This document shows positions 25,564 to 37,041 of a stretch of 64,000 nt of DNA, in pieces. Below the pieces are notes generated by a model. The model did no database searches. It worked only from the letters and a program-made list of their open reading frames with translations, and was not told the DNA's origin. Source of the DNA: Blastocystis sp. Blastoise. Its lineage: Eukaryota; Protista; Bigyra: Opalinata. Each line of letters starts with the position of its first letter. The stretch's first letter is position 1. The translations under genes and the position numbers were made by a program. The stretch is from the NCBI GenBank assembly GCA_039096225.1, contig JBBPEB010000023.1, forward strand, positions 248,001 to 312,000, written 5' to 3'.

Positions 25564-26068
25564 TTTATTATATTTTAGTATATAAGAATTACATTTCATT
25601 TTACTTATTTACTCTTTGTTATATGATTCTTTATGCTGTTTATGATCTATATAATTATATTATAACACTCTTTATAAATAATAAATTTAAAACTATTGAT
25701 ATTTATATTCCATTTTTTATTGTTTTTGTTTTGTCTCTTTTTACATATGAATATTCATTCACTTGTTTTGTTCAATGAAAATCATTTTTATTATAGTCTA
25801 ATTAATAGAAATTATATTTTCATGGCTTTAATGATTTTGTATTTATAAATGGTCAGTAATTGTTTTTATTATTTACTATATAAATACAATAGTACTTATA
25901 GATATTTATTATATCAAACTCACTTTTTTAAACTAAATAATAATTTATGAAAAATGTCAAATCTCCTATAGAATATATATATCGCCTCATAATAATATAT
26001 TATCTATTAAATAGTTCTATGTATTGAATTCAGAATAAAATAAACACTATGGACATTTTTTCAGGTTT

Positions 26069-26280
26069 CTGTCAAAAGGTCCAACGACTTTTTTGTTTTG
26101 GTTTCCCCAGTGGTGAGCAGTGAAAATTTTTAAATATGTAGCTGACAAAAGGTTATTTGATTTTTCTGTTTGGTTTCCCCAGTGGTGGAGCAGTGAAAAA
26201 ATTTTAAAGGGTAGCTGACAAAAGGTCCAACGACTTTTTTGCTTTGGTTTCCCCAGTGGTGAGCAGTGAAATTTTTTGTC
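26069..26280 (+). repeat. Three ~73-bp subterminal direct repeats at the left end of the element
   Basis: Units G(T/A)CAAAAGGT...TTTGGTTTCCCCAGTGGTG(G)AGCAGTGAAA start at about 26071, 26144 and 26217. Confidence 0.92.
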
Positions 26281-26559
26281 AGAGTTTCAGTGATTTTATA
26301 AAATCGAAAAGCAGTGCAAAAGTATGACGCACCTTAAAACAATAATTGGCGAATAAAAATGGTTTTAAATATTCTCTATTTTTTCATTTATTGGCTTTTT
26401 TTATTCTTTTTGTGGTGTAATAATAAACGATATAACAAAACAAACAAATTAAATATTATCAAATAATCATAAAAACAAATAATAGAAAACAATAATAATA
26501 AATATATAAAAAAAAGATAATAAAACATATAATAAATAATATAATAAAATATATATAAT

Positions 26560-27280
26560 ATTTAATTTATAATATTTCAACCAGGACAGTTTCAGTCTCT
26601 AATTTGCATTTAAGCCTAACCAACCTATATAAAGAGATGATATTAGTTAAGTATTACTAATAATAATATATATATAACATTTTAAAATAATAATAAAATA
26701 AAAAATATATACCTTTTCTAATCATTACAAGACAGGCAAGGAATCAAAGACAAAGAACCATCCTATAAAAGATATATGATAAATAGTATAATGAATAAAA
26801 CAATATAATTAAATATATATATATACTTTTTATAAACCATTCTCCAATTGGCCAACAACGACAGCAACAGAACTTATGGAAACCTATATAAAGATAGAGT
26901 GAGTTGTAGAATATAATAATATATGATATAATAAAATAATATAGAATAATAAAATATAAATATATACATTACTCCTATATAAATATAAAGTGGGGTTAGT
27001 TATATAATATGTAATAGATAATATAGATATATATGTACCTTTTATTCATGTTGATTCCCTTCATTCTAGACCCAAGCAGCATAACTATAAAAATAATTAG
27101 AAAAAGAAATATATATATATATACCTATAAGAGAACCATAACCACACACAAGAAGGAGCAGAACACTTAAGGAGACCAGGAATAGCCACAGCAAGAAGCA
27201 GAGACAGCTACTATAGAAAATGAATGAATAGAGTAGAAAAAATAAAATATAAAGAAACAGCAAACACCTACCATCATAAT
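26560..27280 (-). other. Multi-exon spliced unit inside the element with no sustained ORF (decayed gene or lncRNA)
   Basis: About six GC-richer blocks bounded by host-style tatag|...|gtat sites, including a 7-nt micro-exon GAGTAAT near 26968-26974; joined frames hit stops. Confidence 0.5.
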
Positions 27281-29119
27281 AGTATCATATGATATGAAAT
27301 AAAGTAATAATTTAATAATACATCATTATAATGATATAAGATATAATAAAATAAATATGTGATAAGTCATGTAGGATTTTGTTTTGTTATAAAAGGGTGT
27401 AATAGGAATTTAGAAGATATAGCTGAAATAATGAAAATAAACATGAATAATCTCATATCTACTAAATATAGAGAATCTTCATCATAAATAAAATGAATGG
27501 TTAAGAATAAAAGAGAAAGAGAAATTTTATTTCTATGAGGAAAATGGATATTGTTATTGTTATTTTCAATTTATCCTAATTATTATTAATACTATAAAAA
27601 ATGTTTTATTTTAAAGAATTATATATTTATTTATCATTATAATGTTTTATAATTAGTTTAGACGACAGAAGAGTCATTTTTATAGTTAATTATCAAAATT
27701 ATTCTTAGTATCACTTTGTAAGTATAACTTATTTTTTAAATAAACCTAGGCTATAATACAGACTTATAGAGAAGACCCTGAGACTTCTAATCCCAAAACA
27801 AAAGTGATTCATATAATTCAGAATGATTGTCTGAATCTTCATTTAGAGTATTAATTTGAGTCACATACTTTCAATAAAATGATTAAATAAAGAGAAAGAT
27901 GATAAAAAAGGTCTAGAGTCAAAATTGTTATGAAATATCAACTTTTTAATCTATTTGTGTAGATTTTCAATTATTTTAATATCATAATATGACTGAAAAG
28001 AAACAAAAAACATTTTAAAGTCAATTAAGTCAACAATTGTAATCAAGTAAAAGTCTTTTAAAACCTCTTCATAAACTCAAAACGTATAGAGTGAGTGTTT
28101 TCCAGTTAAAATAATGTTTATTGTTACAATAATATCAAAAACAAATCAAATTATTATTTTATAATTACTCAAGAACAACTTTTTCTATCAACTAAGGACT
28201 CATAGCTATCAAATATGCATATGAATAAGCAAAAATAATATTTTGTATATTTTTAATTGAAAAGTCAGAATCGTGTTGATAGTTTACTATAAAACAAATG
28301 CAAAAATCACTTTTTTATCAAAAAAATGTTTAATCTCATTAATCGTTATATTCATGATTTATTCATTGTCTACTTACCGTGTTTAATCATCTTCAGTGAT
28401 TTTTAGTGAAACTAAAATTATTTCAAATACATATTTTATTTTCAATAATAACAGAAACGTCTCATATTGCATATTTAGTGTCTAAATGAAGTTTAAACAT
28501 GACAGTGATATCAATTAATCAAAAATTATAAAATATAAAGAATCTCCATTTTTATGACTTGTCTTAAATCATGTTAAGAGTAAATGAATGAATAGTTTCA
28601 TTAGTCATCTGTATGATTTTAGTATTATTTTCAAAATATTTTGTTTTTTAACAAGAATAAATTCTTAATTTATTGTTTATCAAGTCAAAAATGTATTTAA
28701 ATGATTTTTTTCTACTGTACAAGGATACACTGATCATATGAAAAAAAAATTGCACAGAATCTTTTGATAATCTATTTTTGAAAAATGAGAATTATTTTTT
28801 GGAACTAAACTAATATTTTACGTATAAACATTATAAAATCTCCTGAACAATCTTTTGAGAAGATTCTGTGTTCGACAATACACTTAATTAAGTAATTGAT
28901 AATTGTTGGAATATTTTTGTATTGAATAAACTGTTTTGAATGTTTCTATGAATCATCTATATACAACTAATACATTTAATGATTAAATAAATACACATAT
29001 AAAGAAAAAAATAGTAATTAACATAATTGATCTTCACCTCTCTGAATATATATTTTTTGAAAATCTTATACAATATGAATATTAAAACCTATATATACAT
29101 AAAATAGTTATATAAACGA

Positions 29120-29187
29120 CCTTAAGACAGGAATTGAACCTGTTTTCAATCATAAATTGATTGAAACTTACCAATTTAAGCTTAAGG
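29120..29187 (-). ncRNA. tRNA-like cloverleaf RNA or tRNA-derived element (not a canonical tRNA)
   Basis: Minus strand CCTTAAG-CTTA AATTGG TAAG-TTTCAATCA ATTTA TGATTGAAA-ACAGG TTCAATT CCTGT-CTTAAGG: 7-bp acceptor-like stem, D-like arm with GG, 9-bp arm, canonical T arm with B box GGTTCAATTCC; a T-run follows shortly downstream. Confidence 0.7.
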
Positions 29188-29399
29188 ATAATATAGAGGA
29201 AAAGTAATATAAAGGGATATATAATAATACGAAAATAAGTATGAAAAAAAATATATGTATAAGAGAAAACGATGCTAAATATAGGAGGGAAAAATGAAAA
29301 GAGAATAAATAGAGAAAAATATAAAGTTAATGAGATAGGGATAATTAATGAAATTAATAAAAAAGAATTAAAATAATAATATAGAGAAAAAAAAATATA

Positions 29400-33250
<3,851 letters not shown>

Positions 33251-33259
33251 ACTAGATAA

Positions 33260-33290
<31 letters not shown>

Positions 33291-34346
33291 ACATACCTAA
33301 TAGAAAAAAATGAATTTGGTGATGTTGAGTCATAGGGAAAGATAACCAACAGAAACAGTAGAAAACAACCTAAATAAATAAATAATAATAAATAAAAATA
33401 TAAAAATAATGAAAATAAATAATAAAATGAATTAGAATTCTAATTCAAGAAAAAAAAAGAAAGTTAATAATAGATAGAATGAATATACGATAAGTATTTT
33501 ATCATATAATATTACAGCAATATAAAAAATAAAAAGATAAGAGATAATTATAAAAATAAATAAATACATATATACTTTGAAAACAGTTTGACATCATAGA
33601 CGTTGTTGACATGGACTGAAGAGGACTCTTATAACCACGGACGAGCAGGAACCTATACATGCTAGAGAATGGGAGAATGTTAATATGGGTAAAGAATAAA
33701 AAATAGCAATATACATACAAGGGAACAGTCTGAAGTTAAAATGAGCTTCTATTTTTAAAAATAAAGGCAAATAAAAATAGAATAAAAATAAAAAAAATAT
33801 GTAACAAATGAAATATTTTCTAAGTCAATAGGCTCAATAGCGTATGGGTGTCTTCAGGTCTTAAAAGAAAAATCATTTTTGCGGGAATATCAAGAAATTC
33901 AAAAAAGTATATTTTCCCTCCTTTTTTCGCTGTCACTTTTTTTTAATATTTTTGACTTTATAGTATTAAAATCGATTCTTACAGGCATGTATAGACACTT
34001 TATACCACTTTTGAAACTAAAAATCAAATATTCAAAAATGAGTGAAAAATCACAACAAGCAAGAAAAACAATTTTGTAAGCTGAGTATGTTGTGTATAAG
34101 TATGTCTAACAACAGAGATGATAAAAACGCACAACTCCTCTTGGTTTAGGACATAATTATGAATTCTCTTAAAAAAGCTATTTTAAACCTTAAAACGATA
34201 CCCTGAACTATAAATCAAGTCCTGAATGATATTCTAAAGTCATATTTTTAAAAACAGGTTTATTGACGATAATCAATAAACAAAAACAAGAGCTTCTGTT
34301 TTACTTTTCTTTTTTGAATTTTTAATTGTTTTGACTTTCTAGGGTA

Positions 34347-34856
34347 GTTGGCTAAAAGAATGCTGTCGTCTTTAGGCTAAAAAATTATGAATAAAAAAGT
34401 CAAGTCATTTTATTGTTTTTTCCTTGGGAAATCAAAAAGAAGAAATTTTTAGGTGTGTGTTGATTTAGGCTGTATAATGGTTTATATTGTAAAAGGACTT
34501 GACGAGAATGATTGAAATGATAATATATCACTCAGAGAATACACAAATTTTAAAAACTTCTCACTCATGTAATCCATTCCTGAATTATAGACTTCAGAGA
34601 AAAAATTAAAGTCTTTTTGGTTTTAAACAGTCATTTTAAATCATAAAACACTGTAAAATAGTCAATATTTAGAATGTCTATGATTATATAAATAAACAAT
34701 ATATTTTGTAGAGTTATTTTTAAGTTTTTCTCGTCAAAAAGAGAGAAACTTGACAAGTTGGCGGACACTCTTTTCTCGAGTTTAGGCCAACGTATTTTTG
34801 ATTAAAAAATCCCAGTCATTTTGTTGTTTCTCTTACGGGAAATAGGGTCAAAAAAA
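34347..34856 (+). repeat. Degenerate ~100-bp direct repeat pair near the right end of the element
   Basis: GTTGGC...TTTAGGC...AGTCATTTT.TTGTTT...GGGAAAT...CAAAAA at about 34347-34440 and 34757-34856. Confidence 0.6.
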
Positions 34857-34978
34857 CACAAAATGTCCATAGTGAAATAAAATATAAATGTTTATAAACA
34901 AAATACTAGAATGAAATATCAAATGAAAGAAACAAAATTAATAATAAAAATAATATATAAATATAAGTAGATAATAAT

Positions 34979-37041
34979 TTAGAATTCTAATGGAATATCC
35001 ATGTTTCTATATACACTGGCTGTAAGTGCAGGTATATAAACCTATATATATATATTATATTATAAATATATATATTATATATAAACAAATAAAGTATGTT
35101 GTTCTTGAATATATTGAGTAAAATGATCTGTATTATGATCCACGCGGTCTTTCCCGCCAAATGGAGCATCGTCACTCTATATATATATATAAATAGTTTA
35201 AATAATACTAATAATAGTATATAAATAGTTTAAATAATACTAATAATAGTATATAAATAGAATAATAATACTAATAAGAGTATATAAATAGATAATAATA
35301 ATGTATAGTATATATATACAGAGAGAATGCACTTATATTTTCCTGGTAGATGCACGGTAAATTGATAGTCAGTTTGAGAGAGATGAGGATGAAGATTATA
35401 AATAAATAATAAAGGACCTTTCTCATACGCTATTATTTGACTCTCTGTATCTTGTATATATATATACTCACGACTACCCGTCATCACATTGTATAAATCT
35501 TGTAAGCTATTCACATCTCTATCCCAACGGTTGAGGAATTTATAACGGAGAAGAGGGTCATCACAAAGGGACCATTGTCTACGACAATATTTATAACTAT
35601 CACCATTTCCCTCCCGCGGGAAATCAAGCCATTCTGGATGTCCAAATTCGTTTCCCTCGAAATTGAGGTAGCCTTCCCCTCCAAGAGAGAACGTTAATAA
35701 ATGTATACATTTATGTAGCGCTATTCCTTGGTCAACGATTTGATTATAAGGAGATAATACTGACATGCTGGTATACATTTCTTTATCCATAAGCCAGAAA
35801 GCTATAGTTTTACTTCCTACAAGAGCTTGATCGTGACACTCAGTATAGGCTATATATCTCTCTTGATGTCTTCGATTAGTAAGTGTATATAGAATGTTAC
35901 CAACATCCCATTTTCCCACGGTTCCTTTCTCCATCAACTTGGTCCATATATCTAAATAAACACGGGAATAAGAATAAGGCATATTATAATAGTAATAAAC
36001 ATAATAATAAATAATAATAATAAACATAATGATAATAATATATATATACATATATCTGGTATAGCCATAGCCATTCGATAGTCAAAGCCGAGGCCTCCCC
36101 CGCGAATATCGGAGGCCAGTTGGGGATAGCCAGAGACATCTTCAGCTATCGATATTCCCGCGGGGGAAATCTCTTTTATTAAAGAACAAGCGAGACATAA
36201 ATATACATAAGCATCTAAATCAACAGAATTATTATAATATTCATGGTAATCACCTGAAAATCCAAAGTTTGCTCCATGATGTGTATAAAGAATACTAGTA
36301 ATACCATCAAATCGAAATCCATCGATGTGAAATACAGAAACATAATAATTTAAATTTGATAATAAATAACGAACTACATTTGTTTCATGATAATTAAATA
36401 ATTTAGAGCCCCAAAGTGGATGATCCCCGCGGGGACCATGATGGAAATAAAGATCAGAGCCATCATATAAATTTAGTCCTTCACCGACATTTGAGCACCC
36501 GTGACTATTTTAGAAAAATAAGGGATAATTTAAGAAAAACCACGGTTATATATACCTATGAACAATATCCATTAGAACGATAAGACCCTCTTTATGGCAT
36601 GTGTCTACTAATCTCTATATATATAATATATATGTATATATACATAAATAAATAAATATATACATATAATATATATATATAATATATATATATATATACC
36701 ATAAATTGTTCTGGTGTTCCAAAACGTGACGAAGGTGCGTAAAATGATGTCACGTGATATCCGAATGATCCATAATAAGGGTGTTCCGCAATACCCATAA
36801 TCTGAACAGCATTGTATCCTTGTTCTTTAATTCGTTGAATGACGTGATCCGTAAAATAATCGTAACTGGCGATTGTTTCTTCTTCGCTACTAATTCCGAT
36901 ATGACATTCATAGACTTTAATTCCTTTTTTAGTGATATTTTGAGGTTCAGGTCCGTTATATTTAAAGGAATACTGTTCCCATGACGAAGGGTTCCAGTAT
37001 ATACCGGTATATGCAGGCAATTGTTTGTCTATATATACAAA

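Follow-up and report, generated by a model that had tools for sequence, protein, structure and literature searches.

A linker-less tRNA mimic at the edge of a C/U-rich tract in a likely CACTA-type transposon of Blastocystis, and its possible role in RNase P/RNase Z processing

The minus strand of a 64-kb window of Blastocystis sp. Blastoise DNA (the whole stretch analysed, 64,000 nucleotides, numbered from its first letter) holds a 68-nt tRNA-like RNA, running from 29187 to 29120, that folds into a linker-less cloverleaf with stems of 7, 4, 9 and 5 bp. It is a real, unusual and well-formed tRNA mimic in a telling position, directly 3′ of a 4-kb pyrimidine-rich tract and inside an 8.8-kb element that is likely a transposon (Table 1). 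We propose that the cloverleaf would act as a mascRNA-like RNase P/RNase Z processing signal that generates the 3′ terminus of a long non-coding RNA rich in C and U. Our confidence in this reading is evenly divided, and every cleavage step in it is one that we infer.

Table 1. Positions of the features discussed, in coordinates of the window.
Feature	Position	Strand	Remarks
Left terminal inverted repeat CACTATGGACATTTT	26045..26059	+	AAA before
Subterminal 73-nt tandem repeat	26069..26271	.	2.8 copies
Predicted multi-exon region	26580..27330	-	splice sites of host type around 5-6 introns; spliced frame at best ~110 aa
Downstream flank, at least one diverged second copy or allele	28508..28838	.	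87-92% identical; X1 records 1, 2 and 4
38-nt GT-AG intron	28957..28994	-	absent from the X1 contig, which spans the cloverleaf's 3′ half as well
Linker-less tRNA-like cloverleaf, 7/4/9/5 bp	29120..29187	-	fold and shuffles; GG closing the D loop on its 3′ side
Acceptor stem	29187-29181/29126-29120	-	7 bp
D arm	29180-29167	-	4 bp, loop AAUUGG
Anticodon-position arm	29166-29144	-	9 bp, loop AUUUA
T arm	29143-29127	-	5 bp, loop UUCAAUU
Exact B-box/T-arm motif GGTTCAATTCC	29130..29140	-	0-mismatch match
Predicted RNase P site	29188/29187	-	inferred from tRNA geometry
Predicted RNase Z site	after discriminator U at 29119	-	inferred from tRNA geometry
Pyrimidine-rich tract, 4.06 kb	29188..33251	-	~82% C+T; G in most 200-nt bins 0-5%; predicted to form the final exon of a long non-coding RNA
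Degenerate GAA/GAT triplet array in the tract	29464..30381	.
Second array, AGAT, in the tract	31122-31248
Predicted small 5′ exons and introns	33252..33760	-	donors 33718, 33575, 33296; acceptors 33653, 33370, 33252; predicted only
Right subterminal region	34371..34843	.	62-nt motif twice (34371-34432 and 34781-34843, 75%) and a strong hairpin
Right terminal inverted repeat	34860..34874	-	AAA after

All 25 pairs of the cloverleaf are Watson-Crick, and there are zero linker bases and zero variable-loop bases; together with the 5-nt loop in the anticodon position, this bears out the description given in a sequence-only reading of the same DNA. The structure is the minimum-energy fold of the 68 nt (-18.9 kcal/mol, z -4.8), is equalled by 0 of 200 shuffles and persists within a context of 368 nt. 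Pair probabilities reach 0.87-1.0 in the acceptor stem and most of the long anticodon-position arm, and the D and T stems are 47-67% populated in the fold model (about 0.5 for the D stem, 0.6-0.7 for the T stem). A cloverleaf descriptor matches only 29120-29187 in the 64-kb window; strict, or relaxed to allow linkers, it finds 0 sites on both strands of 60 block-shuffled windows. The D-loop GG and the B box claimed in the same reading are both present, the latter as the only exact match to the B-box pattern in the window (the sole 0-mismatch site among the four listed). Two further claims lose ground. The A-box-like stretch is weaker than stated, with mismatches to TRGYNNANNNGG, the A-box consensus used for comparison, and the downstream T-run, a single T4 at 29104, is uninformative against a background of 10.4 such runs per kb in the window.

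Canonical tRNAs have U8, A14, linkers at positions 8, 9 and 26, a variable region of at least 4 nt and a 7-nt anticodon loop, and the cloverleaf departs from them in U8, A14, linkers, variable region and loop. The checks for an ordinary tRNA named in the sequence-only reading agree with this: ARAGORN reports 0 tRNA genes in the window, and the Rfam tRNA model scores 19 bits, below its cut-off of 29, in an alignment that spans positions 1-71 with two linker bases deleted. At gathering cut-offs Rfam gives 0 families across the window. There is also a second register, with a 7-nt loop UU-UAU-GA at positions 32-38, which together with the AT-rich tRNA-like arms would suit a tRNA-Ile(UAU) that is aberrant yet functional, or an organellar tRNA copied into the nucleus. 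This we find scarcely credible, as the register is 11.8 kcal/mol worse (-7.7 versus -19.5 in the register comparison) and has C8, U14, a 1-nt variable region and G37, where A37 is expected after a UAU anticodon; the blank ARAGORN result counts against it too, and neither organelle-like genes nor other RNA families were found in the window.

Descent from a tRNA is likely all the same, whereas decoding is not. The D-loop and T-arm pattern retrieves three loci, one viral and two metagenomic, all of which are ordinary tRNA-Ile(UAU) genes by ARAGORN (L001, 286-360 of a viral contig; L002, 755-831, and L003, 519-595, of metagenome contigs); a UAU anticodon of tRNA-Ile is uncommon in bacteria. Beyond these three genes, no homologue of the cloverleaf appeared in two viral, one metagenome and two prokaryote-genome pattern scans, and tighter cloverleaf patterns gave 0 matches. 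As the collections are non-eukaryotic by design, blank scans carry little weight; with no homologue there is also no covariation.

A closer counterpart is found among the tRNA-like ends of animal long non-coding RNAs. According to the accessible parts of PMC11693755, mascRNA and menRNA have a 7-bp acceptor and a 17-nt T arm, do without the eight linker residues of tRNA, and combine a small D arm, whose two essential Gs dock on the T loop, with a longer anticodon stem and a compact loop. The part of PMC8457004 available describes how in MALAT1 RNase P cuts at the 5′ edge of the cloverleaf while RNase Z and the CCA enzyme release it, and how an A-rich tract/ENE and a leader-trailer helix are needed. 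The Blastocystis cloverleaf shares with mascRNA and menRNA the linker-less four-way junction, the 7-bp acceptor, the 17-nt T arm, the GG placed at the D loop's 3′ edge, a long anticodon-position stem with a short loop and the place directly 3′ of a multi-kilobase non-coding stretch. It is, however, longer (68 nt versus 57-58), with a D arm of 14 nt versus 10-11 and an anticodon arm of 23 nt versus 15-17, and it is AU-rich, with no G-U pairs and no sequence match. Unlike MALAT1, it belongs to a stramenopile, lies inside a likely transposon, has predicted introns and is not beside SCYL1/FRMD8.

The elements that accompany the animal cloverleaf are missing here. Upstream there is no MALAT1-type ENE, A-rich tract or triple helix; no AAA run occurs within 300 nt upstream of the predicted RNase P site, and the upstream 150 nt are nearly unfolded. 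No continuous leader-trailer helix extends the acceptor, which gains only four pairs beyond an internal loop. RF01684, which we take to be the Rfam accession of the mascRNA/menRNA family, is not among the seven Rfam matches at E<=10 in 29060-29260. The cloverleaf is therefore not a member of the mascRNA family; by analogy, it probably works like mascRNA from outside it. The mascRNA-like processing signal suggested earlier is strengthened by the linker-less layout, by the tract ending at the predicted RNase P site and by an element transcribed and spliced on the minus strand.

The tract itself is the strongest strand skew in the window and almost unstructured. Its 3′ change point lies at 29184 (2-log-unit interval 29178-29196), the same in all four ranges tried. 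Since hairpins must mix purines and pyrimidines, the change point was recomputed with the cloverleaf cut out, and it stayed within -23 to +10 nt of the junction (3/3 ranges). At its 5′ end the change point, 33252, falls on the last predicted acceptor, the AG of a candidate intron. Stops occur in all six frames of the tract, with 10-17 per minus frame. Two long open frames were rejected as coding: a 279-codon minus frame through the cloverleaf, whose crossing part (125 codons) has no homologue in either protein collection, and a 181-codon acidic plus frame with no usable start; on a strand poor in purines, long open frames are to be expected. Telomerase RNA was rejected as well, there being no CCCTAA template in the element and a different candidate having been published already (PMC8287931, in the part available).

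For RNA evidence, assembled contigs of four runs (X1-X4) were compared with 28500-29460. One 274-nt contig (X1 record 5, depth 2.9) matches 28845-28956 and 28995-29154 with 0 differences. As it skips a minus-strand GT-AG intron, a spliced minus-strand RNA holds the 3′ half of the cloverleaf together with downstream DNA. At the predicted RNase Z site the contig is uncut, and it stops short of the RNase P site; a single contig from a single run, it fits a precursor and equally fits no processing at all. It breaks off within the loop, at 29154, which could reflect chance, a branch in the graph or a true RNA end. No exact contigs cover 29155-29460 in the four runs, where contig filters remove records, so that this gap counts neither for nor against transcription, and X2, X3 and X4 yield short unlike pieces or nothing on 28500-29460. 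A share of 0.51 of the words sampled from 26450-36400 is present in X1, non-tract words being 0.60 of all sampled words, and exact contigs held about 308 of the 688 words of the non-tract stretch compared. Set against the non-tract share, this word share is strand-blind, weak and indirect, and suggests that part of the tract is probably in X1. Transcription of the tract would follow from this share and from the upstream splice signals: with splice-site rules trained outside the element, a rule-based intron finder places three introns (four rows) on its minus strand and 0 on its plus strand, the acceptors 33252 and 33653 scoring weakly.

The same contig joins the 3′ half of the cloverleaf to spliced downstream sequence, and could thus speak for a cloverleaf that acts on the downstream RNA, either because RNase P would cut and RNase Z would not, leaving a protective 5′ end, or through competition with an intron 29171-29089. 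The 29089 acceptor, a strong site of host type 31 nt downstream of the cloverleaf on the minus strand, scores 11.9, near the training median of 12.5, and the tRNA-like piece of Arabidopsis GUT15 affects the splicing of its intron (PMC6152437, accessible part). We nevertheless regard this explanation as highly improbable: the 29171 donor, GTAAGT in the D arm of the minus strand, reaches a score of just 3.3 against a median of 8.0, the contig continues past 29089 without splicing, an uncut precursor accounts for the contig equally well, and the upstream tract is left unexplained. Splicing from 29171 to 29089 would remove most of the cloverleaf, and the one contig is unspliced there. GUT15 is also a eukaryotic precedent from outside the animals, in which a tRNA-like RNA is cut from a long non-coding RNA that Pol II makes and that is spliced; according to the same part of that source this tRNA-like RNA sits in the last intron, whereas the one described here seems to close a very long exon and is retained in the contig (PMC6152437).

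The exact B box, at a tRNA-like distance from the A-box-like stretch, raises another explanation, in which the locus would be a TFIIIC/Pol III promoter: it might drive a tRNA-like gene of its own, serve as an insulator, or act divergently to make a GA-rich RNA from the plus strand. Between 29143 and 33222, over ~4.08 kb, TTTT is absent from the plus strand; no other gap of this kind in the window is as long (the next is 1273). Because of this gap and the exact B box, we keep this explanation under consideration as an unlikely one. A tRNA-like sequence with box B lies upstream of the U2 snRNA of Leishmania, likewise a protist and likewise beside another transcribed unit; in the available text of PMC4950102 the boxes are functional there, whereas here the A box is imperfect, the fold is perfect and the neighbour is a 4-kb tract and not an snRNA. 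TFIIIC tauA subunits are listed for tortoise isolates, but the B-block-binding subunit domain for none of the three, perhaps through missed annotation (PMC12129017, part consulted). Apart from the A box, it counts against a promoter that it needs boxes and not 25 perfect pairs, that the absence of TTTT largely follows from the composition of the tract, and that splice signals and the one spliced contig are all on the minus strand. What survives of the promoter or insulator suggested in the sequence-only reading is thus the B box, set against an imperfect A box, an uninformative T-run and a spliced RNA running through the 3′ half of the cloverleaf. The plus strand of 29143-33222 is nearly without C, and, purine-rich as it is, could form R-loops or triplex DNA.

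A tRNA-derived SINE has a Pol III head followed by a body and a 3′ simple-repeat tail, and is multi-copy. Here the simple-sequence tract sits 5′ of the supposed head, not 3′, and the A box fails, so the suggestion of a SINE head finds no support. The cloverleaf is comparable to such SINEs and to Helenus (PMC10886601, available part) as a small-RNA-derived piece in a mobile element; unlike in these, no LTRs or SINE tail were seen around it, and the tRNA piece is fully re-paired, not decayed.

The element that carries the cloverleaf spans 26045-34874 (8.8 kb) and has perfect 15-bp terminal inverted repeats starting CACTA, with AAA on both flanks. An inverted repeat of 15 bp is reached by one of 200 shuffles and the combination of repeat and 3-bp duplication by none of 200; the AAA duplication alone is weak in AT-rich DNA. 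Terminal inverted repeats beginning CACTA, a 3-bp target-site duplication and subterminal repeats characterize CACTA/En-Spm transposons, and CACTA ends, a 3-bp duplication and subterminal repeats are what the element has. The CACTA...TAGTG ends and the internal low-complexity cargo also recall non-autonomous members of this group; its left and right ends have little in common. Unlike in CACTA (En/Spm) transposons, no transposase was found in this element: 12 stop-read-through frames of the non-tract parts gave no transposase family and one weak SNF2 row (E 0.011). From its sequence the element is likely a non-autonomous CACTA-type transposon. The genus InterPro table (PMC12129017, Table S5) has 0 En/Spm entries; as none of its Blastocystis isolates is credited with such a domain, the family, or else its transposase, may have escaped annotation. 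Neither the 73-nt repeat nor the left end has a match in viral contigs.

The element lies between the 3′ ends of two convergent host genes. The neighbours of the cloverleaf locus are an FG-repeat gene and one that we take to be glycogen-branching-enzyme-like, a label drawn partly from reading the sequence of the gene. A glutathione synthetase encoded in the window shares 96% identity with a protein labelled Blastocystis sp. Blastoise, and the hit after it only 54%. The window has ~24% GC and many AT-only introns, which fits the AT-rich tortoise Blastocystis clade, for which the accessible text of PMC12129017 gives 21-23% GC, longer introns and a median intergenic distance of 645-719 bp. A bacterial promoter scan stayed at chance level and is not relevant here.

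Cargo of transposons is often inert, which argues against a processing signal. On this explanation, a tRNA fragment would have been captured and rearranged in a non-autonomous CACTA element, its acceptor arising by duplication of CTTAAG, and the GA-rich tract would be a microsatellite expansion that starts at the capture junction by chance. The palindrome CTTAAG is indeed present in both acceptor strands (29121 and 29181), so that a 6-bp duplication would yield six of the seven acceptor pairs for free. This also qualifies the earlier argument that complete pairing means maintenance: the 25 of 25 pairs support it, but the duplication could supply most of one stem. The terminal inverted repeats around the cloverleaf also speak for inert cargo, as do diverged versions of the flank 28508-28838 in X1, with 5/64, 17/126 and 23/200 differences, which are other copies or alleles. 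The Rfam tRNA alignment with its two deleted linker bases, the UU-UAU-GA register and the three tRNA-Ile(UAU) loci sharing the D-loop and T-arm letters point the same way, and low-complexity DNA makes up ~12% of these genomes (PMC12129017, part available). Inert cargo accords poorly, however, with 25 Watson-Crick pairs that include a 9-bp arm foreign to tRNA, with elbow bases that are all intact, with a tract edge ~10-20 nt from the cut site within 8.8 kb, and with a tract that is the most skewed region of the window. Because the CTTAAG duplication could give most of the acceptor stem, we rate it as unlikely and no lower.

We favour the processing signal because the layout matches mascRNA/menRNA point by point and the 5′ edge of the cloverleaf is the end of the tract, because the contig is spliced on the minus strand, the intron signals are minus-only and the tract is non-coding, and because machinery of RNase P, of RNase Z and of the CCA type is listed for tortoise isolates. 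In the part of Table S5 of PMC12129017 available, Rpp30, Rpp21, Rpp38, Rpp40, the protein-only RNase P domain and the CCA/poly(A)-polymerase head domain are listed for all three tortoise isolates, and Pop1, Rpp29 and Ribonuclease Z/BN for two of the three. Transcription, by Pol II as we predict, would start near the right end (~33.8 kb) on the minus strand; small introns would be removed and the polymerase would run across the 4-kb tract and the cloverleaf and on through the downstream exons. RNase P, as RNP or protein-only enzyme, would then recognize the elbow of D-loop GG and T loop and the 7+5 bp coaxial stack, and its cut at 29188 would be the 3′ end of the long C/U-rich RNA. RNase Z and the CCA enzyme would free a 69-72 nt RNA unable to decode. 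Lacking a triple helix, the long RNA would need other protection of its end, by protein binding or tailing, or be short-lived. Its most likely job, as a guess, would be that of an unstructured scaffold or decoy for pyrimidine-binding proteins; hnRNP or polypyrimidine entries are not found by name in the genus InterPro table (PMC12129017).

Against the processing signal stand the missing triple helix and leader-trailer helix, the missing Rfam mascRNA match and the lack of a homologue, as well as a sole contig uncut at the RNase Z site, stems that are partly self-similar and D and T stems that are about half to two-thirds populated in the fold model. The wider proposal, that Blastocystis independently evolved the MALAT1/NEAT1 strategy, with a linker-less mimic recruiting RNase P to finish a multi-kilobase C/U-rich RNA, a unit carried and copied by a cut-and-paste transposon, and 3′ protection of a non-triple-helix kind, is tentative, and we doubt it more than we believe it.

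MALAT1 and NEAT1 were called the only long non-coding RNAs matured by tRNA machinery in a 2025 paper (PMC12941219, accessible part), and MALAT1 is reported only from jawed vertebrates and absent from lampreys (PMC10869381, accessible part). The literature searched, mostly without subscription papers, contained no element of this kind, either from Blastocystis or from a DNA transposon, and the available part of PMC5608401 has no passage that we found on tRNA or RNase P. If the processing signal is real, the linker-less fold would be a convergent answer, in a stramenopile and with unrelated sequence, to being cut by RNase P while escaping translation; such RNAs could then exist with no triple helix and be carried along by DNA transposons. 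It would also offer a search idea, namely a linker-less cloverleaf at a composition edge, which tRNA finders and Rfam miss. If the cloverleaf is inert cargo, it is a curiosity.

The region 26580-27330, whose well-formed introns flank short exons with a weak spliced frame, gave no Pfam match in its unspliced frames; it would represent a non-coding RNA of several exons, a piece captured from a gene, or the gene of a small transposon protein. At 33885 and 33850 on the minus strand, just before the predicted first exon, lie TTCCCGC, presumably E2F-like, and ACCCATAC, which resembles the published Blastocystis snRNA upstream element AACCCRTAA; both may be there by chance. At 28840-28870 a small imperfect palindrome has a loop that appears inverted in a diverged X1 copy (loose end 28838), likely through a micro-inversion. 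The strongest 68-nt fold in the element belongs to another imperfect palindrome, at 34721-34795 in the right subterminal region (-20.8 kcal/mol).
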